Source: Minisyncoccota bacterium (GTDB taxonomy: Bacteria > Patescibacteriota > Minisyncoccia > 2-02-FULL-40-12 > GWA2-44-9). Taken from it: 64,000 nucleotides of DNA. This document shows positions 9,278 to 59,459 of the stretch, piece by piece. Position numbers and translations under genes: made by a program. Each line of letters starts with the position of its first letter. Within the stretch, counting starts at the first letter, position 1. Under the pieces are notes generated by a model that saw nothing but the letters and a program-made list of their open reading frames with translations, did no database searches and was not told the DNA's origin. The stretch lies in NCBI GenBank assembly GCA_030583765.1, contig CP129474.1:201709-265708 (forward strand), given 5' to 3'.

Positions 9278-9283
9278 ACCAAC

Positions 9284-14660: not shown

Positions 14661-14664
14661 GTGC

Positions 14665-16128: not shown

Positions 16129-16137
16129 AGCATCCTA

Positions 16138-16166: not shown

Positions 16167-16215
16167 AACGTTTGCTATAGTGCTAAAAGTTCTTCTCACA
16201 ACGAAACGAAAGGAA

Positions 16216-17187: not shown

Positions 17188-17234
17188 AGCACTTCCGTTC
17201 TCGCGTGCCCCCAAGTCTCATTGGGGGCACATTT

Positions 17235-21237: not shown

Positions 21238-21302
21238 AGGAGTTCACGATACTCTACGAATAAATAGACGCGCGGTCAATTGCTTTTTAGCTGCAAAAAT
21301 AT

Positions 21303-23917: not shown

Positions 23918-23939
23918 TATTCTCTTTATCTAAAATACC

Positions 23940-24866: not shown

Positions 24867-24872
24867 ATATTT

Positions 24873-34795: not shown

Positions 34796-34842
34796 GGGTT
34801 GGTACTATCATAGCGCGCATAGCAACGTAAAACAACGCCCTT

Positions 34843-39216: not shown

Positions 39217-39219
39217 AGG

Positions 39220-39786: not shown

Positions 39787-39795
39787 AGCAAGCTC

Positions 39796-41580
39796 CTAGA
39801 GAGAGCTCAACTCCTTCTCAATGAGGGCTCGAATCTCGCTCCCCGGCGCCGCTAGGGAGAGCCCCTTTTCTAATGCCGCGAGCGCCTCCGCCCTATTCCC
39901 GATCCTTGCCTCAATGCGCCCTAAATTCAGATATCCGATAGGATGGGAGGGAAGGAGTTCAACCCACTTTTGTATCATCGTGCGGGCAAGCGCCAAATCA
40001 CCCTCTTTTGCAGCAATGCTGGCGAGTCCCTCATATGCATAGGGAAAGGCGGGGTCAATGGCAACGGCCTTTTCAAATGCAGCTCGCGCGCCATAGATAT
40101 CGTTACGGGCCAAAAGAATACTCCCGATATTATAGTGTGGCTGTGGGAAGGTATCTTCGGCAGCAACCGCTTTCCAGTAGTACTCTTCAGCGCGCGCGTA
40201 TTCACCTCGATCGTAGTAGATGTTGCCGACATTGTTGTTAATGCGCGCACTCTGTGGCTCATAGCGAAGAATGTCTAGATAGAATGCGAGCGGATCTCCC
40301 CACAGACGATTGCGCTGGATCGAAAGTATGCTGAACACGATGACAGCCACCACAAACCCTGTAGCCATGAGTGGGCGCACCCACGTAAACATATTCCGTT
40401 CCCATATACGCCATGCGGCCCACGCGCCTGCGGTAAGTGGCCCCACCATCGCAAGGTAGAGCCAATGTTCATAGATCAGCGCGTTCACGGGCGTAATGCC
40501 CGAGGTCAACGCCATGCAGGAGAAGAACCACCCCAGCGCAAAAAACAAAAGGTGCGCGCTGTTCGGGCGGCCCTCCTCAACGGTTCGCAAGCGTCGCACC
40601 AATATGACACAGAGGCCAATAAGCGCACTCACAAAAAGTACCGGGATCAGGACGGGTAGCTGCAAAATGTGCGTGTAGACCACCGCGGAACGCTCCATGT
40701 GCAATCCAAGAGGCCACAAGAACATCGATGCATATTCGGTCAGCAGCGACGCAAAGGTCATGAGTCGGACAAACACACTCTCCGTATATGGATTGCTCTG
40801 CGCAAAGAAATTAAGTGTATTTTCAAAATTTAAAACCGTAAGGCGCAATATGCCGTACACCAACGAAATGCCGAAAAACGGCCAGAGGTAGCGCGCCACC
40901 CCCACAATCGCCTGTCGCACCGATCCCACCGCAACAAACGAAAGAAAATACACTGAAGCAAGGAGGGGGAAGATAACTGCGGTCTCCCTACTTAAGAGCG
41001 CAAGCACGCTTGCCACCATGGCGCCGATATACCAGCGTCGCGCATGTGTTTCACGGGCTTTCAGAAGCATCCAGAGCGCCGCAAGCATGCCGAAAACATG
41101 GAGAGGATCTCCGCGACCGGCAACGTATGTCACCGCCTCAGTTTGGAGCGGATGCAACCCAAATATCGCCGCAACAACAAAGGGGATAAAGCGCTTCTGA
41201 AAGGCGCGCTCTAGAAGCAAGAACACAAGCACTACATTCGCAATGTGGAGTACGTTGTTCACAAGGTGATACCCAAAAGGAGCCGCACCGTGGAGCACAT
41301 AATTTATGGCGAACGTAAAGAATAAGAAGGGGCGATAATAGTTGCTCTGCAGACCAATACCGGCAAGCGTATTGTGCGAAAACCAAAACGTAATAGTGTC
41401 CCACGAGATAGAGTGCACCGCGGGATTGTTGACGATCCAATCAGTATCATCCCAAAACAAGGGATTTTGTAAGTTTGTTGCGTATACAAAAAATACCGAA
41501 ATGCAAAGACCGAGAATCATGAGCATGCGGGTGCGTTGTTGTGCGGATGATCCCAACATAGGCAAAGATAAGTATGCCAA
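39796..41580 (-). CDS. PMT/TMTC-like GT-C-fold membrane protein with C-terminal TPR repeats (paralog B2)
   Basis: First-loop motif LQNPLFWDDTDWIVNNPAV parallels B1. Multi-TM core. C-terminal TPRs (NNNVGNIYYDRGEYARAEEYYWKAVAAEDTFPQPHYNIG...). Confidence 0.55.
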   Translation of the reverse strand: MAYLSLPMLGSSAQQRTRMLMILGLCISVFFVYATNLQNPLFWDDTDWIVNNPAVHSISWDTITFWFSHNTLAGIGLQSNYYRPFLFFTFAINYVLHGAAPFGYHLVNNVLHIANVVLVFLLLERAFQKRFIPFVVAAIFGLHPLQTEAVTYVAGRGDPLHVFGMLAALWMLLKARETHARRWYIGAMVASVLALLSRETAVIFPLLASVYFLSFVAVGSVRQAIVGVARYLWPFFGISLVYGILRLTVLNFENTLNFFAQSNPYTESVFVRLMTFASLLTEYASMFLWPLGLHMERSAVVYTHILQLPVLIPVLFVSALIGLCVILVRRLRTVEEGRPNSAHLLFFALGWFFSCMALTSGITPVNALIYEHWLYLAMVGPLTAGAWAAWRIWERNMFTWVRPLMATGFVVAVIVFSILSIQRNRLWGDPLAFYLDILRYEPQSARINNNVGNIYYDRGEYARAEEYYWKAVAAEDTFPQPHYNIGSILLARNDIYGARAAFEKAVAIDPAFPYAYEGLASIAAKEGDLALARTMIQKWVELLPSHPIGYLNLGRIEARIGNRAEALAALEKGLSLAAPGSEIRALIEKELSSL

Positions 41581-41601
41581 GCAACAAGCGTCAGCGCAAT
41601 C

Positions 41602-43371
41602 CTACGGACGACCGAGCCACAGTGCGCTCTGTCCAGCGTGTGTGTGGGCCATACGACGAGCATAATCGCGCGCAGCTGTATCCCCAAGCACGTCGTAACA
41701 TTCAGCAAGCTTCCGATACGCAACTCCTCGCGCAATGCTTGAACCCGTCAGCGGCAACCATGTGTCTCGCGCAAGGTCGCATCGCCCAAGTGCTTGGAAG
41801 AACATACCCAGACGCATACGCGGCAATACCGCATCCGGTGCTCGCTCGAGCACGCGTGTATATTCGCGTAAAAGCTCTGGAATACGTGCCTCGGGAATTT
41901 TACGAAGCGTTGCTTCAATGGTGTCATTGATGTGCGTAATGGAAAGCGCATAGCGTTCTATCAGCGTGGCATGCTCTGGAATGCGTTTTACAAAAATCAT
42001 GCCGAAATTATCCCAGTAGACAAGCGCCCAGTCTGCACGCGTCGAAAGCATATATGCGAGCGATTCCCACGGGCGCACGAGCGCGCTTGTGAACTGGTAG
42101 CGTTCCAATATTTCATCTACGCGCTCTCCTTGTGCGAACGCCACAGAGTCTTGAAGTGGGCCGTCGTAGAAACATTCGCACCCGCCCCATAAGAAGACGT
42201 TACGCTCGGGGTAGTGGGCGAGCATATAATTCCCCCATGTCATCGTGTGATACATGCGAGCATCTCCGGGCACATGAGTATCTGCGAAATGTATGAGATC
42301 TCGTGGCCACACGGCATAGGGATCTCGCAACCCCGCCCCTGCACGCCATCCGAAAAAGAGAACAACGCAGATCGCGCACGCAGCACACACCCACTCCCAT
42401 CGCACGAGCACGCGCAGGTGGGTCATCGCGCGAAGAGCCATAGGCAGCAGTACGAGCCACGCAAAAGGAATGTACTTCATGGACACCCACGGCATAAGCC
42501 AAAAACCAACTGACAGACCAAGCGTTCGGAATGCACGATTCTCAGAGCGAAAAGCATACCAGAGCGCAAGCGCCCCCAACACTATATGCATCACAAAAAT
42601 AAATACGCCCTGGCTCGTGCCCATATGGGCGGTAAGTGGCATTGTCTCAAGCAGTGCCGCAAATACACCGGTTTGTCGTAATGGTTGGAGGGCATACGTA
42701 TAGATCGAAGCGCCGAGAGGATTTGCAAGCGTCGCTAAAAATCCGACGCCCAAAGAAGAAAAGAGGATAGTCTTTGTCCGAGAAGATACATGGGACAAAT
42801 TCCCCCACACCGTATCAAGGATGAACGCTAGGCCAACTCCAAGCGCGAGAATGATCGAAGCATGCGTATTCGCCCAAAAGAAAAGCGTGCCCACAAGGAG
42901 CGCGCCCCATCGCCATGATGCATGCGCAAAGAGGCGCTCCAGCACAAAGAGCATCCCCGCCAATCCTAGGTATGCAAAAAGTTGCGGGCGGGGAGTGATA
43001 AAAGGCGTCAGCGCTCCGGCAACCAAAACAAAAAGAAGCGCCGTGTGTCCCGATAGTCGCCCGCCGCGCCATGAAAGCGCAAGAACCGCCGCGCCACAAA
43101 ATGCAGAAAACCACGCCACAAGAGGCCACTCGCCTATGCGCCACACCAACGCGGCAACGGCTTGGAATAACCACTCGTGGTTCTCCCATGCCGCACCAAA
43201 GCGCGAAAAAGAAAATGATTCAGTGCGTATAAAAGATCCTTGCTGAAGTAATTCTTCGCCAATACGGAGATGGAACCACGTATCAGCATCGGGGGCCACA
43301 GGAACAAGCATGGCTATAACCAGCAATGCGCCAACAACAGAGATCACGATGCGCTGACGTAACGAGATCAT
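41602..43371 (-). CDS. Polytopic integral membrane protein, uncharacterized family (paralog A2 of 35996..37462)
   Basis: Multi-TM with the same motif set as A1, plus a C-terminal soluble region with TPR-like helices. Confidence 0.45.
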   Translation of the reverse strand: MISLRQRIVISVVGALLVIAMLVPVAPDADTWFHLRIGEELLQQGSFIRTESFSFSRFGAAWENHEWLFQAVAALVWRIGEWPLVAWFSAFCGAAVLALSWRGGRLSGHTALLFVLVAGALTPFITPRPQLFAYLGLAGMLFVLERLFAHASWRWGALLVGTLFFWANTHASIILALGVGLAFILDTVWGNLSHVSSRTKTILFSSLGVGFLATLANPLGASIYTYALQPLRQTGVFAALLETMPLTAHMGTSQGVFIFVMHIVLGALALWYAFRSENRAFRTLGLSVGFWLMPWVSMKYIPFAWLVLLPMALRAMTHLRVLVRWEWVCAACAICVVLFFGWRAGAGLRDPYAVWPRDLIHFADTHVPGDARMYHTMTWGNYMLAHYPERNVFLWGGCECFYDGPLQDSVAFAQGERVDEILERYQFTSALVRPWESLAYMLSTRADWALVYWDNFGMIFVKRIPEHATLIERYALSITHINDTIEATLRKIPEARIPELLREYTRVLERAPDAVLPRMRLGMFFQALGRCDLARDTWLPLTGSSIARGVAYRKLAECYDVLGDTAARDYARRMAHTHAGQSALWLGRP

Positions 43372-44639
43372 GATTGCGGAGCAACGCGCCAGATAGCACC
43401 AGCGGCATCGTCAGAAATATACAGCGCACCATCGGGACCAAACTTGAGATCAACGGGCCTCCCAAAGAGCTTGCCGTCACGCAACCACCCGGTAATAAAG
43501 TCACCGGAATCACTCACGTTACCTTTCGCATCCACGGCGAAGCGCACCACCTTATACCCTGTGGGCGTACTCCGATTCCATGAGCCGTGATATGCCACCA
43601 GTAATTGCCCGCCGAGTGAGCCCCAGCCCTTCGCCGGAACAAATGCAATACCCAAAGGCGCTGAATGCGCAGGAAGCTCAATCGCCGCGGGAATAGTTTT
43701 TGCACAATCAGTTTGAATATCCGTTCGCGAGAATCTCCCTGGGTTAAACTTCGTATCACGCACCCGATCACCATAACAAAACGGCCATCCATAGCTCTGC
43801 TCTGAACGAATAATGTTTACTTCGTCAGGCGGAAGATCGTCTCCCAAGTTGTCGCGACCCATATCGGTGCCCCATATTTCTTTCGTTATGGGGTGAAATG
43901 TAAAAAAGACCGTATTCCGCAAACCGCCCGCAAACTCTGCAGTATACGTGCCCTCAGGGTCCGCTTCGAGTAATGACCCGTATTTCCACGTCGCCTCTTC
44001 AACGCACACATCACACGAAGAGCCGACCGTTGCATAGAGCTTTGTCTCACTCAAAAATCCTGAAAGTTTTGGCGCTCCAGGGCCACTCACGATCTCATTT
44101 TTACGTAGCTTTGGCCCAAAGGCGATTGTGCGCGTCACGTGCCTCCCGCCAACAGGAAATGACATGATCTGCTCTCGCTTCGCAGTGTTGGTAATACTGC
44201 CCGTTGCGAGATCATAGGGATACCGCCACACACCACGCTCCTCCGCAATGTAGATAAAAGTCTTTTTTGCGTCGTTCGTATAAAACGCAATCCCGTGGGG
44301 ATTCGTAAGGCCAGCCATAAGCACCGTGCGGGCCTCAGCGCTCCCATCGCGATTTGTATCATCAAGGCGCGTGATGCGTCCTGCTTTCATCTCACTTACC
44401 ACCATGCGGCCGCGCGGATCAAACGCAATGGCGCGTGGTCCTTCAAGACCCTGCGCAAATGCGCGTGCGCCAACAGTTGGAGGAAGCGTGAGGAAATCAG
44501 CAGAGCCGTCGGCAGGAATTGGTGTCGGTTCTGGCACCCGATACCCGACCCAATAAGCGATACGCATTGGTCCAACGATAAAAATAGCGGCAATGAGCAC
44601 CGCAACAATGCCGACACCTATAAGAAGCTTTTTATGCAT
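43368..44639 (-). CDS. PQQ-dependent sugar dehydrogenase (GSDH/YliI/sorbosone dehydrogenase family beta-propeller), N-terminally membrane anchored
   Basis: N-terminal TM segment. GSDH hallmarks HSAPLGIAF, VAYHGSWNRSTPTGYKVVRF, GRPVDLKFGPDGALYISDDAAGAIWRV. Confidence 0.75.
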   Translation of the reverse strand: MHKKLLIGVGIVAVLIAAIFIVGPMRIAYWVGYRVPEPTPIPADGSADFLTLPPTVGARAFAQGLEGPRAIAFDPRGRMVVSEMKAGRITRLDDTNRDGSAEARTVLMAGLTNPHGIAFYTNDAKKTFIYIAEERGVWRYPYDLATGSITNTAKREQIMSFPVGGRHVTRTIAFGPKLRKNEIVSGPGAPKLSGFLSETKLYATVGSSCDVCVEEATWKYGSLLEADPEGTYTAEFAGGLRNTVFFTFHPITKEIWGTDMGRDNLGDDLPPDEVNIIRSEQSYGWPFCYGDRVRDTKFNPGRFSRTDIQTDCAKTIPAAIELPAHSAPLGIAFVPAKGWGSLGGQLLVAYHGSWNRSTPTGYKVVRFAVDAKGNVSDSGDFITGWLRDGKLFGRPVDLKFGPDGALYISDDAAGAIWRVAPQS

Positions 44640-44745: not shown

Positions 44746-47700
44746 TTACTGCGCGGTGAACTGGTAGCCACTCATCGGCAGGTTGCGCAAGAAGCCTTGC
44801 GTCGACGCAACGTCAGCATCCGAAGATGAGTTCGTTGAGTTATCAACCCACTGAATCAAGCTGTCCTCGTTGTCACGCAATACGAGCTGGAAGTAGTCCG
44901 ATGCAACGCCAGAGCTGGTGTTGGTCGGCGTGTTGAAGCCCGTGATGGTGTCCAAGTAGACCCTGAGGGTCTTCGAGGTACCGCCCGTGATTTCAACGTC
45001 CTGGCTCGAGAAGTCGATCGTCATGCTTGCACCCACGGATGGGTTCGAAGCATTCGTGATCGTACCGGTATCAACAATCGTTCCAACTTCATCGCGAACG
45101 GTGAAGGTGGGACTTGCGGTACCAGTGGCACCAGATGCAACGGTATCGAATTTAATCGAACCGGATGCAGTTGCGGTGTTGTCGAAGAACAAGCGGGAGT
45201 CCGAGAGACCCTTTGCCGTGATGGTAAAGGTCAAGACTGGATCAACCGTTGAGAGCTTCGTTGCGGTTGGAGCAACAAGTGCAAATTCTGGGAATACGCG
45301 GTAGATACGCGTACTGCGGCCGGCGTCTGCCAAGTCGCGATTTACAATGTTGGAATCCGAAGCATCAATCGTGACACCGGATTCGCCGGTTGCCTTGAAG
45401 ATGCTTGTCGCGCTTACACCCGCCCCATGGTCACCAATGAAGGCGAGATCCCAAACTTTGCCGGAGGTTGCACCCTCAGCCTTAGTCATGTAATCCACCT
45501 TAAGGATGATATCGAGCGAGCTGTCTTTCGCAACATACGGACGATCATTGTCAGCGAAGCCGCTGAATGACGCTGTTGCGAGAGCACCATTGGATGATTT
45601 CGTGATCTCAGAGCCAGCCTTGTTCTTGTACGTGATGTACATATTCTTTGCGTTTTGGGCAAAGTCGGTCTTCTGAGTTCCGTGGTCATCTTCACCAAAT
45701 GTGATGGTGTCGATGTAGTAGCCTTCGTTTGCCGCTGTAAAGCGCCATACGCCTGCTACATCACCATTTTGACCCCAGTACACAGAGTGCTTCTGTGGAG
45801 AGTCGGCTGTGTTTGTAGCAACTGTTAGAGAACCTGAGTTCTTGACAGTCACTATTGTGGTCGGTGACGTACCACCATTTGGATCAGCATTGCCTGCGTT
45901 TACCTGGCGAGATGAATCATCAAGCGCGGTAACATCAGTCGTTGCATCGATGTCGAACGAGAAGTAGTCACTGCCTGATGCGCTCGTTGCATTCGCGCCA
46001 AGGTTGACACGAACTAAGAGCGTCTTTGTTGCACCAGCTGGGATATTCCAGTTCATGTTATTGAACGAGACCTTACCAGTGGTCGCTGAGAGCGAGGATG
46101 CCACACCCGAAGCGATCGGGTTCGTCATGTTTTCGCTATCGTAGAGAGCAACCGAGCTAACGAGGTTAGCAATAGTGATCCCCGTATCAGGCGCTGGAGC
46201 AGTGCCTGCCCCGAAGGTACCAGCAACGCCAGAGTCAGAAACATAGCCCGTGAGGGAGATGTCCGTCACCTTAAGCGCTGAAGCCTGGGAGGCCTTGAAT
46301 GTGATGCCGACGGCGTCAACATTACTGGTTCTGCGTACAAACGTCTGACTATTTACTGAGCCGAGACCAAGCGTCAGTGAAGAAGCCTGGATCGTCAGCG
46401 CTGGACCCGCCATATCAGATTGCGGAACGATGTCTGCATCTGCTACCGCGGTGTTGGTGCCCGCATACTTCATGACAGTGATGTCAGGAGTATCGTCGGT
46501 GAAGTTGTCCAAGAATACCTGGATTGCATCACCAGCTGCGAGCGCAGTACCGGAGCGGCTGTTTGCCGTCTTGATGTCTGCAGTGACCTTGAAGTTGTAG
46601 GTTTTGCCTGCAACGAGATCGTAGGTGTCAGTAAAGGTCTTCTGTGCACCCGTTGCGCTATCTTCACACGTGCCCGAATCGGACGTGGTGAAGGCCGAGC
46701 CATCCTGAGGACCCATAACCGTTACGCCGGTGTCCTTGTTGACGACCTTGAAGTCATCGAGGTCTGCCCAACCGTTGGTGGTGTCTGCCGCGTTTGCGTA
46801 AGAACCATCAGCACCAGGATCATGACAGAGCGTGAACTCCGTCTTGCGAACTTCGATGTTGCTTGCGGCAGTCATCGAGTACTCAAGCAAGGTGGTGTCG
46901 GCTGTATCCGTACCAATGTTTGCTGAGCTCAACGAAGACGAAACAATCGTAAGAACGCCACCCTGGAGGGTTACGTCGAACGCTTCCGCTGCGGAGTCCA
47001 TGTCGGAGATCGTTGCGGCCATACCAAAGCCGTACTGATCACCGATCGCAAGGATATCGGTCGAATTTTCGAAGTAGAGGTTTACGTCCTCATCTTTGCG
47101 CCCGCCAAGATCTGCATAGACCTTGAAGACCTGCTCACCACCCTTCACGATAGAGAAGCCAGAACCAAGATCAAACACGAGATAGCTGTCGCTCGTCATT
47201 GAGCCAGACCATTCGTTCGTGCCTGCCTTGAGCTTGATGTTCGTGATGTCAGACGGCTTGACCGTGCCACCCTGGAACATCGTGATGCGCTTCACGGAAG
47301 CTGCTTCGGTGTTTGCCGTAAGCTTGAATTCCGAGATCTGTGCGCCCTTCTGACCAACCGTCGGGTTCGGGATCGAACCAACCTTGTTCATCGTGATGCC
47401 ACCGCTGTCTGAACCAGAGATGGACATTGTGTTGCCCGTGACTGGCAAACCGCCGACAGAACCCGATGCGAGCATTGCGCCCTTGAGCTCAAAGTAGTTG
47501 ACGTTACCGCCCGTTGCCGAGAGGTCACCAACCAATGAGAGTTCGCGAGTACCGCTCACCGAAAGGTTGAGGTTCGCAAACGTCACTTCACCCGTGGAAG
47601 ATGAGAGCGACTTGCCTGAGGTCAAACGGCGTGCACCTTCGTACACGTACAGGTTGTCGAAATCGTCGGTGGAACCTGCACCCAAGCGCTTGAACGTTAC

Positions 47701-48405
47701 TTCGCTCAATGTGCCCGTGCCCATAACCTTAAAGCGGAGGAACTCAACACCCTGTGCGTTCTTGGTGAGAGTTGCTGATGCTGGGTTGTTCGAAGACAAG
47801 CTGAAGTTTACCGATCCAGAAACTGGAGAGGATGACGGGCTTGCTACGCCACCGCGGGTGTATGCAGGAACCTGCAACACAGAGGAAAATTCTGCACCCT
47901 TGTTGTAAGAGTTGAATTCAGCTGTGTTGATGCAGAAGACCTTCGCAAAGAAGTTCGGGTCATCTGCGACTGCCTGCGCACCGGAGGTGTTTACCCAACG
48001 GAGAACTGCGGTGTCTTCACCAGTAACATCGATACCGTACACCTTCTGATCGCCTGCTTCACAGTTGCGGAAGAGGCCAGAGGTGCCGAATGCATCGCGG
48101 GTTGCTGGCGTGACTGACTTCACATTGGCGAAACCGCCAAGGTGACCGTACATGTTGAAGATTGCTGGGTTCAAGAACAAACGCTTGTACCCGTGCTCAT
48201 TCACAATGTACACGTCCGGATCCGAAGATCCAGCAGCGCTGATAGTGTCGCCTTCCTTAAGACCATAGTCTGACGGCTTTGCAGCCGCGAGTGCTACGCC
48301 AGAGGAAAGGACCAGCGCCATGCCCGTGAACGACAATACTGTCGCTACGGTTGTGAGACCTGCGACAACTCGCTTGAGTGTCACAAGGTTTTTTGAAGTT
48401 AACAT
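44746..48405 (-). CDS. Giant (1219 aa) secreted cell-surface protein, Thr/Ser/Gly-rich with Ig-like/beta-sandwich repeats (S-layer-like/adhesin-like)
   Basis: An N-terminal signal/TM segment (VVAGLTTVATVLSFTGMALVLSSGVALAAA) is followed by ~1150 aa of low-complexity beta-rich sequence rich in T/S/G/V/N. No enzymatic motifs and no obvious sortase or lipobox anchor. Confidence 0.7.
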   Translation of the reverse strand: MLTSKNLVTLKRVVAGLTTVATVLSFTGMALVLSSGVALAAAKPSDYGLKEGDTISAAGSSDPDVYIVNEHGYKRLFLNPAIFNMYGHLGGFANVKSVTPATRDAFGTSGLFRNCEAGDQKVYGIDVTGEDTAVLRWVNTSGAQAVADDPNFFAKVFCINTAEFNSYNKGAEFSSVLQVPAYTRGGVASPSSSPVSGSVNFSLSSNNPASATLTKNAQGVEFLRFKVMGTGTLSEVTFKRLGAGSTDDFDNLYVYEGARRLTSGKSLSSSTGEVTFANLNLSVSGTRELSLVGDLSATGGNVNYFELKGAMLASGSVGGLPVTGNTMSISGSDSGGITMNKVGSIPNPTVGQKGAQISEFKLTANTEAASVKRITMFQGGTVKPSDITNIKLKAGTNEWSGSMTSDSYLVFDLGSGFSIVKGGEQVFKVYADLGGRKDEDVNLYFENSTDILAIGDQYGFGMAATISDMDSAAEAFDVTLQGGVLTIVSSSLSSANIGTDTADTTLLEYSMTAASNIEVRKTEFTLCHDPGADGSYANAADTTNGWADLDDFKVVNKDTGVTVMGPQDGSAFTTSDSGTCEDSATGAQKTFTDTYDLVAGKTYNFKVTADIKTANSRSGTALAAGDAIQVFLDNFTDDTPDITVMKYAGTNTAVADADIVPQSDMAGPALTIQASSLTLGLGSVNSQTFVRRTSNVDAVGITFKASQASALKVTDISLTGYVSDSGVAGTFGAGTAPAPDTGITIANLVSSVALYDSENMTNPIASGVASSLSATTGKVSFNNMNWNIPAGATKTLLVRVNLGANATSASGSDYFSFDIDATTDVTALDDSSRQVNAGNADPNGGTSPTTIVTVKNSGSLTVATNTADSPQKHSVYWGQNGDVAGVWRFTAANEGYYIDTITFGEDDHGTQKTDFAQNAKNMYITYKNKAGSEITKSSNGALATASFSGFADNDRPYVAKDSSLDIILKVDYMTKAEGATSGKVWDLAFIGDHGAGVSATSIFKATGESGVTIDASDSNIVNRDLADAGRSTRIYRVFPEFALVAPTATKLSTVDPVLTFTITAKGLSDSRLFFDNTATASGSIKFDTVASGATGTASPTFTVRDEVGTIVDTGTITNASNPSVGASMTIDFSSQDVEITGGTSKTLRVYLDTITGFNTPTNTSSGVASDYFQLVLRDNEDSLIQWVDNSTNSSSDADVASTQGFLRNLPMSGYQFTAQ

Positions 48406-48802
48406 GGCTTAAACCTTTCAGAACCACACTTCACGTCATACGCCGCCAAACGGTGGAGTATATACGCGAGCAGTGGTAGTAATACGAACACTAACAATTG
48501 CCCTGTATAGGGCGAGGCCTTGATTGATTCTGCTCCTCCTCCAGCGGGAGGGAATTTCCGCTAGGTGCGTTGTGCTCGTTCTTTCGACCGAACACGCAGC
48601 TGGAGCGAATCTTCGACGCCAAGACCTTTTATGAATGCGAACTGACCGTTGCAATGGAAAATGGGGAATGCACCGTTCGTCTCTATCATCTCTTTAGCCA
48701 TTGCTTTCGTTCGTGGTTGTCAACGATCTTTTCTGCACTCCCTCCCGCTACGTGTCACCAGGGGGGTGGCATCGTAAGGGGAGAGGGTTCAGACGGCAAA
48801 AC

Positions 48803-48834
48803 GCAACCATGGGCATGGTTGCTCGTTTTTTCCT
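48803..48834 (+). terminator. Orphan intrinsic terminator-like hairpin within a 640-bp noncoding region
   Basis: GCAACCATG-GGC-CATGGTTGC perfect 9-bp stem followed by TCGTTTTTTCC on the plus strand. An A-tract lies upstream, so it could act bidirectionally. Confidence 0.5.
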
Positions 48835-49048
48835 GCTATGTGTAGATAGTTCCCATTGCGTGAGGTTGCGCATTCCACGGGTGCGCTTCCCTATGCTTCG
48901 GGCCGACTTACCGCCTTATATGATAGCAAAAAGGCTGGAAAAGTCAACATTTTCCCGACATTCGTCCCCGACGGTTTTCAGGAGCGAATACCTACAGTAT
49001 AGAGCTTGCAGAGAGGGAAGCAACAGAAAAGATGTGGATATGCCCATA

Positions 49049-51523: not shown

Positions 51524-52441
51524 TTAGCGGTTCTTTAGGGGTGGATAGAGGTCGGGATCAATAGTGCGCTCAAAGCATGTCCGCTCTGCACCATGTTCCC
51601 ATGATTCGTTTTTCTCCATCGGATACGCAAGTGACTGCTGGCTACCAATTGTGTCGGTTGCAAACGTAGCGCAAAGCTCAAAAGAACGAGCGCCGGTGAC
51701 ACGATATTCATATGCCATTTTGGTCACTGGGTCAGTGGGCACCAAAAAGCCAGAAAGCTCATTGTTGAGCACTTCAAGATTTGCAGGGAGTGCATTTTTT
51801 GCCTGCCAATATTGAATAATCTGCCACTGAATCGCGCTCAGATCGCCTATGCGGCGGTCGTCGAGGCGGACGAGACGTTGTGACTGTGGTGTACCGGCGA
51901 TAACAAGACCGGCAACAAGCGCCGCCACTACAAAACCCATTGCACCAGCCTCAACTGCGCGGTGAACGCTCGTGCGCACGCCATTCAACTCGGAGCGATA
52001 CACGGACATAATAACCCCTGCGATGAGAAGCACCGAGAGCGCCTTTAAGAGAAAGCGCAACGACAGATCACCCTGCAAATATGCATGGAGTACGGTAACA
52101 AGATCGCCAATAGCTACCAGTCCTGCGACAAAAAGCGTGAAATACAAGAGCCAGCGACGTACACGCATGTCGCGCTTTTCTGGGAATGCGGCGACGTCTC
52201 TGCGCAAGAAGCGAAGCGTCCAGAGCAGCGCAGGGAATGTGATCACGAGCACCGCGATCGCCCAGCGCATCAGGCTACGAGTCACTTCTCCACTCCATGC
52301 CCCGTCCAGAAATGGATCAGGAATACCAATATTCACCAGCTGGAATGCGAGCATGCCAACGTGGATCGAAACGAACGCAAGCAAAATGGTTGACAAGATG
52401 TATAAAAATACATCCCGTGGAAGATTTTTTGAATCAGACAT
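51524..52441 (-). CDS. Hypothetical integral membrane protein
   Basis: Four or more predicted TM helices and a C-terminal soluble ~120 aa. No recognizable family. Confidence 0.45.
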   Translation of the reverse strand: MSDSKNLPRDVFLYILSTILLAFVSIHVGMLAFQLVNIGIPDPFLDGAWSGEVTRSLMRWAIAVLVITFPALLWTLRFLRRDVAAFPEKRDMRVRRWLLYFTLFVAGLVAIGDLVTVLHAYLQGDLSLRFLLKALSVLLIAGVIMSVYRSELNGVRTSVHRAVEAGAMGFVVAALVAGLVIAGTPQSQRLVRLDDRRIGDLSAIQWQIIQYWQAKNALPANLEVLNNELSGFLVPTDPVTKMAYEYRVTGARSFELCATFATDTIGSQQSLAYPMEKNESWEHGAERTCFERTIDPDLYPPLKNR

Positions 52442-52523
52442 GTTGCTATACTAGCACACTCTAGATCGCAAACAACGTTAGGACAATCACATAGCAAGAA
52501 GACCGGTATGTCTATATTCCGGA

Positions 52524-53039
52524 TCACTCAGAGAGCTTATCATTACGAGATTTCTTCATTATTGGGATAAGTATAGCAAGCAATGTCCAAACCCCAAAAG
52601 TTGGCACAAGTACTCTCATTAAAATATTGCCGTGCTGAGCAAGATTGATAGCTTCCCAAGTGAATACAATATAAAGACTCGCAAAGATATAAAACATGTA
52701 TTCTTCAATGGGAAGTCCTAAAAATTTAATACCTAACGTTTCGTTGAAGTTGAATTGCCACAGCCAGCCTGAATCTTTTCTACCGTGACGGGTTGCCCAA
52801 ATATCCCAGATACTTCCCAATAACAAGATTCCGAATACAAAACTTACTAGATTTACAACATTGATCCTATCAATTAAGAGATACCCCTCAATGAAGGCAG
52901 GGATACCGAAAGCAAATAATAATGTGAGTAAGTAATAAAACTTTTTTGAGATAATCCCCATGAGATAGTAAGTACGGTAAAATATACCAAAATTCGAAGT
53001 AGTACGCAAAAAGCGATGGGGTGTCCTTCTGAAGACCAT
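52524..53039 (-). CDS. Hypothetical small integral membrane protein in an AT-rich segment
   Basis: Multi-TM (LLTLLFAFGIPAFIEGYLLI..., VSFVFGILLLGSIWDIW...). Local GC is about 38%, against 55-60% in the flanks. Confidence 0.4.
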   Translation of the reverse strand: MVFRRTPHRFLRTTSNFGIFYRTYYLMGIISKKFYYLLTLLFAFGIPAFIEGYLLIDRINVVNLVSFVFGILLLGSIWDIWATRHGRKDSGWLWQFNFNETLGIKFLGLPIEEYMFYIFASLYIVFTWEAINLAQHGNILMRVLVPTFGVWTLLAILIPIMKKSRNDKLSE

Positions 53040-53061
53040 TCGGAGCCCGAGCGGGCAGGGT

Positions 53062-53148
53062 GTGCAAATAAAAAGAGTGGGGTTAGGCCACTCTTTTTAT
53101 TTGCACGAGCGAGGGCGAGTGAGACCGCGCAGTCCCGCTGGGACTGCG
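53062..53148 (-). terminator. Stacked hairpins downstream of the peroxiredoxin gene (a 19-bp perfect inverted repeat plus a 9-bp GC hairpin)
   Basis: GTGCAAATAAAAAGAGTGG-GGTTAGG-CCACTCTTTTTATTTGCAC (53062-53106) and CGCAGTCCC-GCT-GGGACTGCG (53128-53148). On the minus strand they lie 3' of the gene ending at 53182. Confidence 0.5.
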
Positions 53149-53181
53149 ACGGGAGTCGGAAGAAGGATACCCAGAGCGCGC

Positions 53182-53700
53182 CTACTTCCCCAGCGTCTTT
53201 TCGCCCGGATTCCATTCAACAGGGCAAAGCTCCCCTGTTTGCAGCGCCTGTAGTGCGCGGTGTACCTCTTTTACCGAACGGCCAACCGAGTTGTCGGAGA
53301 CCATCATCCATCGAAGCGTACCCTCTGGATCAATGATGAAAGTGCCGCGCTGGCTCGCGCCATCAGAGCCGAGCACATTGTATTCCTGTGAGATGATCTG
53401 CGTCGTATCTGCGAGAATAGGATACTTCACTTCGGGTAGATCGCGCTCAAACCATGCCTTGTGAGAATGTTCACTGTCCGTTGATGCGCCGAGAATAACC
53501 GCGTTGCATTCTTCAAATTCTTTCTCAAGGCGCGAAAATTCTTTAATTTCCGTGGGACATACGAATGTAAAGTCACGTGGATAGAAAAAGAGCACTACCC
53601 AACGGCCGCGATAATCTTCGAGCCCAACCTTCACGAACTGCCCCGCATGATACGCCTGTACGTGTGAAAACGACGGCGCTCGTTCTCCAATTTTTACCAT
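53182..53700 (-). CDS. Peroxiredoxin (AhpC/TSA family, 2-Cys-like)
   Basis: WVVLFFYPRDFTFVCPTEI peroxidatic Cys motif. Start at MVKIGERAPSF (53700). Confidence 0.9.
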   Translation of the reverse strand: MVKIGERAPSFSHVQAYHAGQFVKVGLEDYRGRWVVLFFYPRDFTFVCPTEIKEFSRLEKEFEECNAVILGASTDSEHSHKAWFERDLPEVKYPILADTTQIISQEYNVLGSDGASQRGTFIIDPEGTLRWMMVSDNSVGRSVKEVHRALQALQTGELCPVEWNPGEKTLGK

Positions 53701-53888
53701 AGATATGACTCGCCTATCGGCCACCAGCGCGCAGCGTGCGCGCATGGAGAACATGAGACGAGGTATTGCCGAGTTAGTATACCCAACAAAAGCAAAGAGC
53801 GCGATATTGACTTAGCGTCAAAAAATCAGCAAAATGCGAAAAGCGGTATGGCACATTAACAATTTCATACCCTGTTAAGGAGGTTCTT

Positions 53889-54359
53889 GTGAGTATCGAC
53901 CGCTTGATTGACCTCGCACGTCGCTTTTTCGAAGATGTGCAAAAGCGCGCTCCAGGAAGCGCGGCGCGCACCGTCGGCATGGGCATCAACGCCTTTTCGG
54001 AGCCCTTCTACGATCACCTCGTTGGGAGTACGAAGCTCGGTGAGCGCCTGCGAGCTCTGGGGCCCGAAAAAACGTTTGCACTTCTTGGGATGCTGTACTT
54101 CGCGTATTCGAGCATCCCCAAGACGTCGCCGTTCGCACAGCTCCTCGATGAGCTGTTCAGTAACGCACCGTCGGAGATCTTGGCGAGACTCATGCGCCAC
54201 CACGATGCACGGTCGCTTCTCGAGGCACTCTTCGCACGCATCCGCCAGGAAAAGGGGTTCGAGCACGTGACACAGCAAGACATCGCCGATCTCATGGCGG
54301 CCCTCTGGCGCAAACAGCGCAACGAAAACTCGGCGGCTTTCAAGCCACTTCTTCCCTAA
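53889..54359 (+). CDS. Hypothetical soluble alpha-helical protein (GTG start, strong SD), in a GC3-rich island
   Basis: AAGGAGG is 5 nt upstream of GTG at 53889. GC3 is very high relative to the rest of the window. The opposite-strand ORF 53865..54602 is Arg-rich antisense noise. Confidence 0.55.
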   Translation: MSIDRLIDLARRFFEDVQKRAPGSAARTVGMGINAFSEPFYDHLVGSTKLGERLRALGPEKTFALLGMLYFAYSSIPKTSPFAQLLDELFSNAPSEILARLMRHHDARSLLEALFARIRQEKGFEHVTQQDIADLMAALWRKQRNENSAAFKPLLP

Positions 54360-54369
54360 AGGAGAACCC

Positions 54370-55965
54370 ATGATGACGCCCATTCGCCTCGTGCCAGCGC
54401 ACGAAGTTCCGTGGCGTAACGCGTTTCTGGCGCTCTTCGGAGCGCTTCTTGCCGGAACGATCGCGTGGCCGATCTTGTTCATGATCGGAATTGCGATGGA
54501 TAGCGGCGGCCTGCTCCTGTTCACGCTTGCTCTCGGAGCCGCCTTGACCATCGCATGGTCCGTCGCGATCTCTCCGGCACTTCTGTTCGCATGGGTCCTC
54601 ACCTACATTCCGGGTGCGGGACGCATCGTCACCGGCATCGGAACAGCTGGAGTATTTCTCGTGACATCGACGACCCTCGCGTGGGTCTTCGGTTTCGCAC
54701 AAAAGCCCAGCGTGCTCGCTACGTACACCGTGGTCACCATCGTCGTCGCGTGCCTCTTGGTGCTCTTCGGCGAGGAGTCGACGTTCACATGGATTCGCGA
54801 GTTCTTCTTCAAAAGACTTGCGGTTCTATGGTGTCTCCTTACCCTACTCGGCCCCGCCTACATGATCGTCGGCGACATTCCTCTAGCCGTGCGCGATCGA
54901 GCAAGAGCGAACGCCGCGCGCACCGCGGCGAACATCCGCAAGGGTGAGATGCAACGAATCACATACGCAACGCGAGCCGACCTCGGAAAGATCCAGTTCT
55001 TCGATTCTGAACTCCTGGATGGTCAGACCGTGCCGCGGCCTCTCGTTTGGAAAGGGTGCGCAGATCCCACAACAGGGCTCGTGCGCCTTTTCTACAACGG
55101 AGAAGGACGCGTGGACGGCAACTGCGGCAAGCCGCTCTCCAGCACCGGCCCAGATGATCCCGAGCTGCTCGCTGGCATCACGGCACACCAGGAAAAACTG
55201 GCTGAAGCAGCCGCCCAACAAGCAGCTGCTCGACCAACGCCAACCGTGGAAGCCACACCAGAGCCAACGGCTACCCCGAGTCCGCCTTCCACACCAACAC
55301 CTGAACCGACCGCGGAACCGATGACCACCGCGCAAGTGCTCGCACAGGCGCACGAGCTTCGCGAACGCGAGCGTAAGAGACAGGAGGAGGCCTATGGTGC
55401 GCCGACCACAACATTACCGACGTGGTATCGCGCGACACCCACACCAACTCCCGCCCCTACGCGAGAGCCAGACTTCATCCGAGAAGGTACGGAGCTGGAC
55501 ATCACCATCAGCGAAGACTTCAACCTCTCTCTGCGCGAGCGCGCAATTTCCTTCTCGTGCGTCGTACGAACTGAAGTGCGCACGACGCACGGAACAGTCG
55601 CCATCCCCAAAAACTCCCCGTGCCGCGGACGCGTATCGCGCCTCTGGGAGGAGGACGGCACCATGCAGGCCGTGCTCTCCATCGTACAGGCTGGCACCAT
55701 CAGCGTTGCCGAAGAGCAGATCGCCACGCGCGCGAGCTCCAAAGGCCAAAACACCAAAAAGCGCAGCATCGTCGGAGCCATCATCGGCGGAGCTGTCGGC
55801 GGCGCAGCCGGCGCCGTCGCTGACGGCGAGCGTGGCGCAAAACGCGGCGCCGCCGGAGGTGCCGGCGCTGGCCTTGCCGTAGGCATCGCCACCAGTAAAG
55901 GCCCTCACATCAAGAAGGGCACGGCGATCACGTTTTCGTTCTGGAGCAGCGTCTCTCTCTACTAG
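54370..55965 (+). CDS. Membrane protein with Pro/Thr-rich linker and C-terminal glycine-zipper segment, in the GC3-rich island
   Basis: SD AAGGAG before the ATG. N-terminal ~5 TM helices. Linker AARPTPTVEATPEPTATPSPPSTPTPEPTAEP. C-terminus GAIIGGAVGGAAGAVADGERGAKRGAAGGAGAGLAVGIA (glycine zipper). Confidence 0.6.
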   Translation: MMTPIRLVPAHEVPWRNAFLALFGALLAGTIAWPILFMIGIAMDSGGLLLFTLALGAALTIAWSVAISPALLFAWVLTYIPGAGRIVTGIGTAGVFLVTSTTLAWVFGFAQKPSVLATYTVVTIVVACLLVLFGEESTFTWIREFFFKRLAVLWCLLTLLGPAYMIVGDIPLAVRDRARANAARTAANIRKGEMQRITYATRADLGKIQFFDSELLDGQTVPRPLVWKGCADPTTGLVRLFYNGEGRVDGNCGKPLSSTGPDDPELLAGITAHQEKLAEAAAQQAAARPTPTVEATPEPTATPSPPSTPTPEPTAEPMTTAQVLAQAHELRERERKRQEEAYGAPTTTLPTWYRATPTPTPAPTREPDFIREGTELDITISEDFNLSLRERAISFSCVVRTEVRTTHGTVAIPKNSPCRGRVSRLWEEDGTMQAVLSIVQAGTISVAEEQIATRASSKGQNTKKRSIVGAIIGGAVGGAAGAVADGERGAKRGAAGGAGAGLAVGIATSKGPHIKKGTAITFSFWSSVSLY

Positions 55966-56045
55966 GGACGGGCGCGCTCACCACTCCCCACGTTGTCATA
56001 AACAGCGTGGGGAGATTTTTTATGCAATGTGCTACACTAGCGCGC

Positions 56046-56823
56046 ATGGATATATTGCACGCGCTCATTCTTGGCGCCATACAAGGGCTCACCGAATTTC
56101 TCCCTATTTCATCATCAGGCCATCTCATCCTCGTCCCCCGCTTCCTTGGCTGGGAGGATCAGGGTCTTGCATTTGATACCGCCGTACACCTTGGCACTCT
56201 TGTTGCGGGTCGTGTGGGCATTCCGCACACGCATTCTTTCATTCATCAAAACGGTGGGCGGTCTTCTCGTGAAGAACAAAAGCTCGCTCAATATATTGTA
56301 CTCGCCACTATCCCCGCCGGCGTAGCCGGCCTCGCATTCGGAGACGTGATAGAAAACACGCTCCGCTCCCCGCTCATTGTGGGCGCTTCGCTGATCTTTT
56401 GGGGCGTCATACTGTGGTGGGTTGATCGCGGCAGTAGCAATACACCGTCACACGCGCCCGACAATGCGCACGTGGCTCTTTGTGGGCTTTGCACAAGCAC
56501 TTGCGCTGATCCCTGGAACATCTCGTTCGGGAATTACCGTTACTGCTGGTCTTGCCAAAAACATGTCCCCGAGCCCAAGCAGTAGAGCTCTCATTCCTTC
56601 TTTCTATCCCTATCATTGCCGCGGCGGGCATTTCACAGATTATAGACGTGGGCATCGCCTCCCTCCTTACCGCACCCATGATGCTCGGCATTCTCTCAGC
56701 GGCGGGTTTCAGGTTTTTCTCGCTATTCGCATCCTCGAGCACATCGCACGCACACGATCTCTGGCACCATTCGCCTACTATCGCATTATCCTTGGCGCAG
56801 TCGTACTCGTCCTGTTTTGGTAA
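56046..56823 (+). pseudogene. uppP: Undecaprenyl-diphosphatase (UppP/BacA) pseudogene disrupted by multiple frameshifts
   Basis: UppP-like segments are spread over three frames. Frame 0: MDILHALILGAIQGLTEFLPISSSGHLIL...HLGTLVA. Frame +1: VVWAFRTRILSFIK. Frame 0: QKLAQYIVLATIPAGVAGLAF. Frame +1: FAQALALIPGTSRSGITVTAGLA. Frame +2: ELSFLLSIPIIAAAG...MMLGILSAAGF. Frame +1: FQVFLAIRILEHIARTRSLAPFAYYRIILGAVVLVLFW. That implies at least 5 frame changes. Confidence 0.7.
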
Positions 56824-57078
56824 TTGCTCCTTCTTTGCGTAAAAAGTGCTTCTTTCGCACGCGCACCCTTATTATAGCCTCCAAGCGAGCCGTCGGAACG
56901 AATCACCCGATGGCACGGGATTTCTTTATTCGTATTCTTGTTGAGCGCGCTCCCTACGGCGCGTACCGCTTGTGGATTGCCAATCTTCTGCGCAACTGGC
57001 CGCATACGTCATCACTGATCCTCGCGGAATTTTTTGTACCACTGCATATACCTTTTCTGTGAACGAAAGAGATTTCTT
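56778..57078 (-). pseudogene. MGMT/Ogt-family (methylated-DNA-protein-cysteine methyltransferase DNA-binding domain) gene with a frameshift
   Basis: The annotated 75-aa ORF carries IGNPQAVRAVG...IPCHRVIRSDGSLGGY (PCHR active site). The upstream helix motif FTEKVYAVVQKIPRGSVMTYAA is encoded in a different minus-strand frame just 5' of it, so there is an indel near 57000-57010. Confidence 0.5.
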
Positions 57079-58935: not shown

Positions 58936-58964
58936 TATATTTCGTTCTTTTGAAAGGAGTGTGC

Positions 58965-59459
58965 GTGGAACAGGTGATTAAGTTAGGGTCGGGACTCCAA
59001 AAGATCGGGGTCACTCCTCATCTGCGGCGTCGTGTCGCAGTGCTTCGTCTCTGCGACGGCATCCGCCCAGAAACTGTAGAGGTGCCGTACGGACACTTTC
59101 TTGATGACTTCATCCACATCCTGGAGATTGTGCTGCTAGAGGTTACGTCGCGCAGCAGGCTGCGAGCCATCGTTGCTGAAATCGCATCACGACTCACTGC
59201 GCCAGACCCCCAGGCGCACCTCTTGTACCACAGACAGGACGCCAAGCGTATCTGCAAGGAGTTGCGTCGCGGCAACGCCGTCCGAGCGATCGTTGCAGAT
59301 GAGCTCATCTGCGAGATCACTCTCGTGGGGAGGAAGACTGTCCTGGACTTCCACCACAAATCACGCCTGTCGGTGCGCAGCCTCGTGCGCCTTTCAGCTT
59401 CGGTAGAGGGGTTGCGGGGACTCCTCCGCGCCCTCAAGGCACTCCGCGTCTCTCCCTAA
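58965..59459 (+). CDS. Hypothetical protein (GTG start), GC3-rich, no recognizable domain
   Basis: SD AAAGGAG is 5 nt before the GTG. High GC3 favours this strand over the antisense ORF 59018..59437. Followed by a strong terminator. Confidence 0.45.
   Translation: MEQVIKLGSGLQKIGVTPHLRRRVAVLRLCDGIRPETVEVPYGHFLDDFIHILEIVLLEVTSRSRLRAIVAEIASRLTAPDPQAHLLYHRQDAKRICKELRRGNAVRAIVADELICEITLVGRKTVLDFHHKSRLSVRSLVRLSASVEGLRGLLRALKALRVSP

Follow-up and report, generated by a model that had tools for sequence, protein, structure and literature searches.

The gene pair, its genomic position and its alleles

The analyzed window comprises 64,000 nucleotides of contig CP129474.1 of a Minisyncoccota bacterium, and within it we focused on the segment 52524..55965, which carries an AT-rich gene for a small membrane protein and a peroxiredoxin gene, followed by two adjacent plus-strand genes for proteins of 156 and 531 amino acids (Table 1). 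The latter two proteins are 100% identical to WKZ27373.1 (QY311_01265) and WKZ27374.1, respectively; the database names of all three genes, those of the pair and the AT-rich one, are uninformative or generic. An initial annotation of the segment had taken the pair for a candidate horizontally acquired cassette in which no homolog is recognizable. Comparison with related genomes leads to a different view: 53889..55965 is almost certainly an ancestral two-gene operon that has held its chromosomal position in the lineage, and no island.

Table 1. Features of the segment and its borders, in window coordinates (TM, transmembrane; pLDDT, predicted local distance difference test).
Feature	Coordinates	Strand	Remarks
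DNA missing in relative L004	~52463..52994		~25 bp of unrelated filler there instead
AT-rich gene	52524..52961	-	lycopene cyclase domain-containing membrane protein, WKZ27371.1, 145 aa; name and start as in NCBI
GC-rich intergenic element	53010..53185		~175 bp; perfect 19-bp inverted repeat at 53062..53106
2-Cys peroxiredoxin (AhpC/TSA) gene	53182..53700	-	172 aa from the relatives' start; PF00578, 1e-35
Promoter-like site	53807..53835	+	TTGACT-17-CAAAAT; consensus match only
Shine-Dalgarno sequence, gene 1	53876..53884	+	TAAGGAGGT; best match of the window
Partner gene	53889..54359	+	156 aa, WKZ27373.1; gene 1 of the operon
Tract with a very different allele in relative L005	54066..55482	+	core 54321..55238 unalignable by blastn
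Shine-Dalgarno sequence, gene 2	54359..54364	+	AAGGAG; overlaps last base of the partner stop codon
Membrane anchor, residues 1-187	54370..54930	+	five predicted TM helices: 15-42, 46-77, 83-106, 113-133, 136-191
Middle domain, residues 190-285	54937..55224	+	small beta-plus-helix domain; 'FFD' motif, Cys230, Cys252; pLDDT ~80
Linker zone, residues 286-365	55225..55464	+	two Pro/Thr-rich disordered stretches around charged helix 320-341
Barrel, main part, residues 366-461	55465..55752	+	IREGTEL and IPKNSPCRGRV motifs; Cys397, Cys418; pLDDT >90
Predicted glycine-zipper hairpin, residues 462-511	55753..55902	+	IVGAIIGGAVGGAAGAVA - DGERGAKRG - AAGGAGAGLAVGIATS; inserted late in the barrel
Closing beta strands, residues 512-531 and stop	55903..55965	+	IKKGTAITFSFW; pLDDT ~90
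Intrinsic terminator	55984..56014	+	13-bp stem, then ATTTTTT; closes the operon just before uppP

This view rests on gene order. In the three close relatives, L001 (Hain_H51, flanks with ~78% nucleotide identity to the window), L004 (Hain_H41, ~77%) and L005 (SRR31091725, 95-96%), the pair stands in the order peroxiredoxin (-), partner (+), big gene (+), BacA/UppP (+), MGMT (-) and HhH-GPD. A more distant locus, L092 (GCA_040961665.1), reads lamin-tail-domain protein, FKBP, DUF5671 (-), a 240-aa gene (+), a 508-aa homolog (+), BacA (+), MGMT (-), tRNA-binding protein and HhH-GPD, which is the gene order of the window, and L090 retains DUF5671 (-), a 133-aa gene (+) and a 419-aa homolog (+); the homologs beside DUF5671 in these two loci have diverged to ~20-30% identity. 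In L087 and L089, a small upstream partner gene overlaps the big gene by 4 nt. A profile of five close sequences searched against 1.84 billion representative proteins additionally retrieved full-length homologs of the same architecture at ~20% identity (P0143, P0146, P0147, P0154, P0135 and P0148). Homologs were thus found for both proteins, the close ones being a handful and all from Patescibacteria. Because the pair is conserved and syntenic in relatives, the reading as a recent import fails: It was present and syntenic in L001, L004, L005, L092 and L090, and no short direct repeats bracket it. Moreover, there are no tRNA genes within the window and no mobility genes in the Pfam scans, which covered 47 open reading frames (ORFs); phage and plasmid collections contained no tblastn match to the 531-aa protein, and both proteins yielded nothing above threshold in Pfam, NCBIfam, PADLOC and PHROGs.

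That partner and big gene form a single operon is indicated by their sequence signals: The gap between them is 11 nt, each has its own Shine-Dalgarno (SD) sequence, and a terminator follows the second. Promoter-like sites such as the one listed upstream are no more numerous than in shuffled sequence. The strength ascribed to the SDs at the outset is borne out, as TAAGGAGGT and AAGGAG rank first by length among the anti-SD matches of 50 ORFs; the remaining ORFs, whose starts were assigned mechanically, reach at most 5 nt. The gene-1 SD is kept as AAGGAGG, GGAGG or AAGGAG in L001, L004, L005, L092 and L090, and a strong SD is present in all relatives examined, distant ones included.

The composition of the segment deviates as had been noticed, if less exclusively than was thought. 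The window has a GC content of 51.7% and the ORF 52524..53039(-) one of 36.8%; with the NCBI start at 52961, the AT-rich gene has 36.3% (z = -4.9 against 47 other ORFs). The GC content at third codon positions (GC3) is 0.707 for 53889..54359(+) (z = +3.8) and 0.688 for 54370..55965(+) (z = +3.4), relative to a background of 0.513 +/- 0.052 (n = 47, from 50 mechanically chosen ORFs). GC3 is therefore raised, but with 69-71% of codons ending in G or C the word 'overwhelmingly' was too strong. Nor is the pair unique within the window, since two more ORFs, 16090..17187 (0.672) and 58950..59459 (0.682), are comparably GC3-rich. The former, on the plus strand (z = +3.1), is a radical-SAM/SPASM gene within the polysaccharide cluster of the window and overlaps the start of its opposite-strand neighbor ORF. 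The latter, likewise on the plus strand, encodes 169 residues without a family match and is hypervariable. The ORFs found at its position in L001, L004 and L005 share 40-43% identity with it, even though the neighbor genes in L005 are 96-100% identical to those of the window, and blastn aligned 58950..59459 in none of the relatives. These counterparts are GC3-rich as well (0.66-0.74).

For the pair itself, GC3 amounts to 0.62-0.82 in both modules at each of the six loci under comparison, among them the distant L092 and L005 with its unrelated allele, and to 0.67-0.71 for the pair as a whole in L001, L004 and L005, where neighbor genes have 0.43-0.55. Being high at all six loci, it is a property of the locus and not the frozen trace of a donor. 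The shift toward G/C-ending codons concerns 18 of 18 degenerate amino acids and is strongest at Phe (G/C-ending fraction 0.39 -> 0.81), Ile (0.36 -> 0.82), Asn (0.47 -> 1.0), His (0.51 -> 1.0) and Tyr, being far smaller at Ala, Gly, Glu, Lys and Gln. A preference for C over T at such two-fold codons is typical of translational selection. Together with the conserved strong SDs, this preference at Phe, Ile, Asn, His and Tyr points to high expression as the cause of the signature, which we consider to have a little less than an even chance of being correct. At the L090 locus the highest GC3 belongs to rpsT (ribosomal protein S20); there are no ribosomal-protein genes within the 64-kb window. A different explanation for the composition, which would be compatible with an ancestral operon, is GC-biased gene conversion at a hot spot of recombination: The GC3-rich genes of the neighborhood, namely the pair and ORF 58950..59459, are its hypervariable or recombining ones. 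Against this, the shift is concentrated at two-fold pyrimidine-ending codons and so resembles translational selection, the unusually strong SDs are conserved, and the radical-SAM gene 16090..17187 is GC3-rich, too, which leaves gene conversion rather unlikely as the source of the high GC3.

The alleles of the pair vary in a manner that suggests recombination. In protein comparisons, L005 and the window agree in AhpC and XseA (100% identity each), HhH-GPD (99%) and S41 peptidase (96%). Residues 1-290 of the two big proteins are only 33% identical and residues 355-531 97% identical; the partner genes share 96-100% of the nucleotides over codons 1-59 and 62-73% afterwards. The flanks of L001 are ~75-80% identical to the window, yet 54301..55200 reaches 86-95%, and the C-terminal domain of the big protein stands at only 61-74% nucleotide and 63% amino-acid identity. 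This window/L001 comparison draws on several independent assemblies. It is accordingly quite probable from the alignments that the N-terminal module and the C-terminal part of the partner, on the one hand, and the C-terminal barrel, on the other, have separate histories and form a recombination mosaic. The breakpoints fall within the partner gene, so that codons 1-59 and codons 60 onward differ in history, and within the PT-rich linker (residues 286-365). As the anchor and the C-terminal two-thirds of the partner were replaced together, we infer that they interact. The term 'mosaic' in the initial annotation is therefore apt, although at a finer scale than meant there, namely for modules exchanged within the pair. 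Diversification of the diversity-generating-retroelement type was considered and rejected: There is no reverse transcriptase among the scanned ORFs, and the pattern is one of whole-module replacement without targeted A-mutagenesis. Elsewhere in the window, 48001..48900, which spans the 5' end of a 1219-aa gene (44746..48405(-)) and the adjoining intergenic DNA, matches L001 and L004 at 87-97% identity; with most of the region being 70-80% identical to these relatives, it is a locally conserved or recently exchanged segment.

Architecture and fold of the 531-residue protein

The initial description of the 531-aa protein, with five N-terminal helices, a PT-rich linker and a Gly/Ala-rich C-terminal zipper, proved broadly right by composition and by structure prediction. 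The helices of the anchor are supported by hydropathy and by an AlphaFold model (pLDDT ~50-65), and several anchor positions are kept in distant homologs (W63, IPG 80-82, P113, FG 133-134 and P171). For the middle domain no fold match was obtained. Thr and Pro account for 35 of the 80 residues in the linker zone 286-365, and Gly and Ala for 28 of the 48 residues in 465-512; the strand that closes the protein is conserved as IPAET.L.F.L across the wider family described below. The full-length model, built from 10 sequences, has a mean pLDDT of 60.6 and contains, behind the anchor helices, the small middle domain (~195-286), a beta domain (375-456), two low-confidence Gly/Ala-rich helices (462-507) and a final strand. 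A second model, of residues 355-531, was built from 126 sequences and reaches a pLDDT >90 in the beta part and <50 in the zipper. Modeling used the separate alignments A6 and A7; a mixed MAFFT alignment misaligned the N-terminal half and was discarded.

Residues ~190-531 are probably extracytoplasmic. This placement is derived from four observations: Members of the wider family bear lipoprotein or secretory signal peptides; four cysteines (C230, C252, C397 and C418) are invariant in the clade, with P0135 and P0148 also having two cysteines in the middle domain; VKOR lies nearby, VKOR and DoxX genes being found near the locus in L001, L004 and L005; and the number of TM helices is odd. The 156-aa partner has no hydrophobic or TM segment and no signal peptide. 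Its counterparts in distant cassettes are probably related to it (hhalign probability 84%, E = 7.6e-6), and the small genes share a conserved motif, in the window SPFAQLLDELFSNAPSEILARL. PDB sequence searches with clade profiles gave nothing usable for the whole 531-aa protein or the partner.

The C-terminal domain very likely adopts, according to the models, the beta-barrel fold of VirB10. In a Foldseek search of the PDB with the domain model, the best 20 matches were all VirB10 homologs with probabilities of 0.91-1.00, falling thereafter to <0.4; they include TrwE, pKM101 TraF, ComB10, CagY, Xanthomonas citri VirB10 and F-plasmid TraB. The TM-score of ~0.47 is normalized on a query that is one third disordered. 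The full-length model, which renders the zipper as a helix hairpin, again gave VirB10 homologs for all of the top 17 matches (E = 7e-6 to 1e-3), in alignments as long as the whole VirB10 C-terminal domain. Moreover, TrwE is the second-best sequence match of the family profile against the PDB (E = 0.022), with the 'vipaGtel...iPrGs.v.G' motif aligned, and one relative, P0047, has a precomputed PF03743 match. A fold search against viral structures gave nothing meaningful. The zipper apparently sits in the models roughly where VirB10 has its antenna, 20 residues short of the C-terminus; its ~50 residues are modeled as helical at a pLDDT <50, and the E-values are better with the helical zipper. 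A late antenna is also found in CagY, at residues 1763-1863 of 1927 (PMC10706595).

Beyond the full-length homologs, nearly all of 120 profile matches align to residues ~340-530, and a search with the domain alignment retrieved >5,895 related proteins. The 15 family sequences that we read are ~200-340 aa long, several of them N-terminally incomplete fragments, and 10 have a lipoprotein-type signal; source names, where given, are Terriglobales, Acidobacteriales and Ca. Angelobacter. A profile of residues 364-462, with the zipper excluded, scores at least 15 bits on 52 members outside the clade and on none of ~4,960 shuffled decoys (best 10.4 bits). Since the beta part separates members from decoys, the family signal is not one of glycine composition alone. 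This uncharacterized family of barrel and glycine-zipper proteins (P0005, P0016, P0044, P0084 and others) comprises the closest sequence relatives of residues ~355-531 and agrees with the 531-aa protein in strand order, place of the zipper and closing strand. Its members are short, secreted or lipid-anchored, single-domain proteins from bacteria that are diderm by source name; they have no polytopic anchor, middle domain or partner gene, and are 20-30% identical to the 531-aa protein. Full-text literature searching turned up no paper describing a VirB10-like or TrbI-like domain with a glycine zipper.

A comparison with known systems shows how far these likenesses extend. With the C-terminal domain of VirB10/TrbI/TraF/TrwE/ComB10/CagY (PF03743) the 531-aa protein has in common the predicted barrel fold and the strand motifs 'GT-x-[ILV]' and '[IL]P-x-G-[ST]'; with VirB10 it also shares the succession of membrane anchor, Pro-rich spacer and C-terminal barrel and would share a hairpin late in the barrel. 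VirB10 has a single TM anchor, whereas five TM helices are predicted for the 531-aa protein, followed by a middle domain that VirB10 lacks, and the amphipathic antenna helices of the former would correspond to a putative glycine-zipper hairpin in the latter. Unlike VirB10, the protein is encoded by a chromosomal, syntenic and hypervariable gene with a dedicated small partner in a host without an outer membrane, and the genes virB4, virB6, virB8 and virB9, which make up the context of a type IV secretion system (T4SS), are absent among the 47 Pfam-scanned ORFs and the flanks of the related loci. We do not class the protein as a member of the VirB10 family, as it does not match the sequence model and lacks both the single-TM anchor and a T4SS gene context; what is new is the putative VirB10-type barrel carrying a glycine-zipper insert, along with its architecture and context. 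The 2TM lipoproteins SlyB, Pcp and YfgH (PF05433, PF13441 and PF13488) are envelope proteins which, like the 531-aa protein, possess a GxxxG/AxxxG two-helix segment with a short charged turn. They carry a lipobox, which is also present in relatives such as P0005 and P0044, whereas the N-terminus of the 531-aa protein, MMTPIRLVPAHEVPWRN, is followed by five TM helices and contains none; and while in SlyB-type proteins an N-terminal membrane hairpin precedes a separate domain, the zipper here lies inside the putative VirB10-type barrel. The glycine-zipper models tested (PF13441 YMGG, PF05433 Rick_17kDa_Anti, PF13436 and PF13488) score below their gathering thresholds (11.9 vs 28.9, 12.9 vs 24.2 and 10.3 vs 27 bits), and with 12-13 bits against cut-offs of 24-29 a membership in the YMGG family is not supported. 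TonB, finally, is an analogy of architecture only, with an N-terminal membrane anchor, a rigid Pro-rich spacer and a C-terminal domain that acts distally, and VirB10 is often called TonB-like; no sequence or fold relationship between TonB and the 531-aa protein was detected, and there are no ExbB/ExbD-like genes.

The AT-rich gene and the wider neighborhood

The start of the AT-rich gene is 52961, in agreement with NCBI and the relatives, and not 53039, from which it had been read. Its product exceeds the cut-off of NCBIfam TIGR03462 (40.8 vs 39.4 bits) and lies just under that of Pfam PF18916 (25.5 vs 27). Like lycopene cyclase domain proteins of the CrtYc/CrtYd type, it is small and polytopic; unlike them, it stays below the Pfam cut-off, is strongly AT-rich and variably present, and is accompanied by neither carotenoid genes nor a second half-cyclase gene among the 47 scanned ORFs. 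The sequence hence assigns it to the lycopene cyclase domain family only, and the context lends no support to a cyclase activity or a carotenoid pathway. The window and L001 share 89% of the nucleotides of this gene, more than their flanks do on average, and a three-way alignment with its junction sequences shows it to be cleanly missing from L004. With the window and L001 having the gene and L004 lacking it, it represents a true indel polymorphism, so that its earlier description as part of a mosaic segment is accurate in the sense of a genuine presence/absence insertion. Neither bracketing direct repeats or target-site duplications nor tRNA or mobility genes were found for this insertion, and one metagenome scan with the protein returned the L001 lineage only, with no donor identified.

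Between this gene and the peroxiredoxin lies the GC-rich element, whose inverted repeat is terminator-like on both strands. The element is kept in L004 (85%) and partly in L005, is deleted in L001 and has no second copy within the window; an Rfam scan of 52300..54000 gave no match. Neither the peroxiredoxin nor the AT-rich gene stands between DUF5671 and the pair in L092 and L090, which suggests that both arrived later at the site: The AT-rich gene is a later insertion between DUF5671 and the operon, and the peroxiredoxin gene probably is as well. In the distant syntenic loci, DUF5671 is located directly beside the partner gene and divergent from it, the peroxiredoxin intervening only in the clade of the window; this conserved divergent pairing may reflect a functional link.

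Downstream of the segment follow uppP, an MGMT-like gene, two HhH-GPD glycosylases, an S41 peptidase, xseA and pyruvate kinase. In 56207..57077, which covers uppP, the MGMT-like gene and the start of HhH-GPD, the window has eight +1/+2 insertions relative to L005, most of which lengthen short homopolymers (GGG vs GG, CCC vs CC, AAAAA vs AAAA). They split uppP over three frames (56007..56585, 56422..56823 and 56552..56842) and truncate the MGMT-like ORF; over the 4.6 kb beyond 57077 there are only ~4 gap columns versus L005. Either a local assembly error or real gene decay would account for these insertions. The UppP of the clade (L004:11652-12446) has its best outside matches (L008-L085) in Gammaproteobacteria and other Pseudomonadota at 41-49% identity, with no other Patescibacteria among them, and a UppP scan of 185,579 species genomes returned the two known relatives and then Gammaproteobacteria, so that no outgroup was gained. 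This pattern means either that related Patescibacteria are poorly sampled or that uppP has a foreign history.

Upstream, a surface-glycan region of ~44 kb (96..44639) takes up a large share of the 615-kb genome. It contains a sugar transferase, a Wzy_C/TPR protein, a flippase-like protein, glycosyltransferases of the families GT1, GT4, GT8, GT9 and GT11, epimerases, an asparagine synthase and several large TPR/PMT_2 membrane proteins. Between this cluster and the segment lie genes for the 1219-aa protein, which has no Pfam match, a lamin-tail-domain protein, an FKBP isomerase and the DUF5671 membrane protein.

Proposed function and competing explanations

Taking position, architecture and fold together, we lean slightly toward an ancestral operon for an envelope protein on the plan of VirB10 and TonB together with a cytoplasmic partner. 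According to this proposal, the product of gene 2 would be held in the cytoplasmic membrane by a five-helix anchor with the N-terminus inside and would expose a disulfide-bearing extracytoplasmic domain; the ~80-residue Pro/Thr-rich spacer would bridge the wall and hold the barrel beyond it, in the manner of the Pro-rich regions in VirB10 and TonB, and the helical glycine-zipper hairpin would take the place of the VirB10 antenna in the barrel. Barrels may then associate, with their amphipathic Gly-zipper hairpins forming bundles or inserting into a lipid layer; the outcome would be a surface-exposed tether or channel that is independent of a T4SS. The product of gene 1 would act as a soluble cytoplasmic partner docking on the cytoplasmic face of the anchor. 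Surface exposure is proposed to drive both the fast evolution of the modules and their exchange between lineages by homologous recombination. That the protein forms an oligomeric, membrane-inserting device is a tentative idea on the strength of the models, with the odds against it, and attachment, a channel and wall organization are all possible roles for such a device.

Several observations weigh against this proposal or parts of it. Patescibacteria have an envelope without an outer membrane, which leaves no obvious lipid layer for the hairpin. The stretch following TM5 is Arg-rich (6 R + 1 K in 28 residues) and would be cytoplasmic by the positive-inside rule. The pLDDT is 50-65 in the TM region and <50 for the zipper in both models, so that the hairpin is predicted only; the domain model attains Foldseek E-values no better than 2e-3 to 1e-1, and Pfam TrbI (PF03743) matches neither the protein nor the C-terminal domain even at E <= 10. 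The L005 allele is a single Logan contig and possibly a chimeric assembly, and GC3 is not raised in the L087 and L089 homologs and only slightly in L090.

One alternative is an envelope-stress protein whose zipper would insert into the cytoplasmic membrane of the producer, in the way that SlyB and YfgH place their 2TM glycine zippers in the outer membrane, while the barrel would lie on the membrane surface, stabilizing lipids or proteins, and would not project from the cell. It would fit the weak sub-threshold zipper matches to Rick_17kDa_Anti, YMGG and OmpA-type models, TagQ and YiaD, a family made up mostly of small lipoproteins with a zipper, and the envelope neighbors uppP, large polysaccharide cluster and peroxiredoxin; glycine-zipper lipoproteins are described as envelope-stress stabilizers in two reports (10.64898/2025.12.22.696046, 10.64898/2026.06.08.730324). 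A domain that folds back on its own membrane would not need a spacer of ~80 Pro/Thr-rich residues, though, a barrel with an inserted zipper is a domain order unlike that of SlyB-type proteins, a housekeeping stabilizer would not usually be hypervariable or swap modules, and no glycine-zipper model reaches its cut-off, for which reasons we hold this explanation to be improbable, with perhaps one chance in a handful. Still less probable is a VirB10-derived surface device without a T4SS, in which the anchor and a cytoplasmic adaptor would hold a Pro/Thr-rich stalk and a ring of barrels at its tip would send its zipper hairpins into the membrane of the host bacterium that the cell inhabits.

A true VirB10 ortholog, that is, a subunit of a T4SS or conjugation apparatus with its other genes elsewhere in the genome, would explain why the only significant fold matches are VirB10 C-terminal domains and why anchor, Pro-rich spacer and barrel follow the VirB10 plan, and T4SS genes are common in Patescibacteria (PMC12102498). 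These systems are reported to be of the monoderm type without VirB7, VirB9 and VirB10, however, with only three VirB10 matches in the data set of that study (PMC12102498); none of the 47 scanned window ORFs matches a T4SS family, the position among housekeeping genes is kept in five contigs, the nearest sequence relatives are stand-alone lipoproteins, and there are five TM helices instead of one and no TrbI match, which makes orthology very unlikely. The initial suggestion of a recently acquired membrane-targeting toxin, holin-like protein or YMGG module, in which the small gene would be an accessory or immunity gene, has in its favor that GC3 and SD strength deviate from the window background, that a glycine zipper and TM helices are present, that the alleles are very variable, as at polymorphic toxin loci, and that glycine-zipper toxins are known (PMC5380434, PMC12955049). 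Yet position and composition signature of the pair are shared by the three close relatives and L092, neither repeats, tRNA and mobility genes nor phage, plasmid, PADLOC or PHROG matches accompany it, and no toxin domain was found. A holin, typically of fewer than ~150 aa with 1-4 TM helices and encoded beside an endolysin, is contradicted by the length of 531 aa and by housekeeping neighbors in place of a phage context. Nor does the arrangement suit a polymorphic toxin, as in the closest comparison the variable unit is the N-terminal anchor with the upstream partner, and not a C-terminal toxin with a downstream immunity gene. We regard such a module as extremely improbable.

The operon thus also illustrates a point for genome scanning: Deviant GC3 and strong SDs can flag an ancestral, probably highly expressed and fast-evolving gene instead of foreign DNA, and synteny in relatives is the decisive check on such a suspicion. 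For the 531-aa 'hypothetical protein', the fold result provides a concrete structural hypothesis. It would be a VirB10-type barrel outside any T4SS, in a bacterium without an outer membrane, and it links the protein to a family of >5,800 members, mostly lipoproteins, that is undescribed in the searchable literature. If a device directed at a host membrane were true, it would represent an attachment point or a pore, the swapping of modules would amount to an arms race with hosts or phages, and the thousands of related proteins, mostly lipoproteins and with Acidobacteriota source names, would be an outer-membrane version of the same ring-and-hairpin principle. As an envelope-spanning, recombining and probably highly expressed protein, the product of gene 2 is a reasonable candidate for the interface of the cell with its host or with phages.

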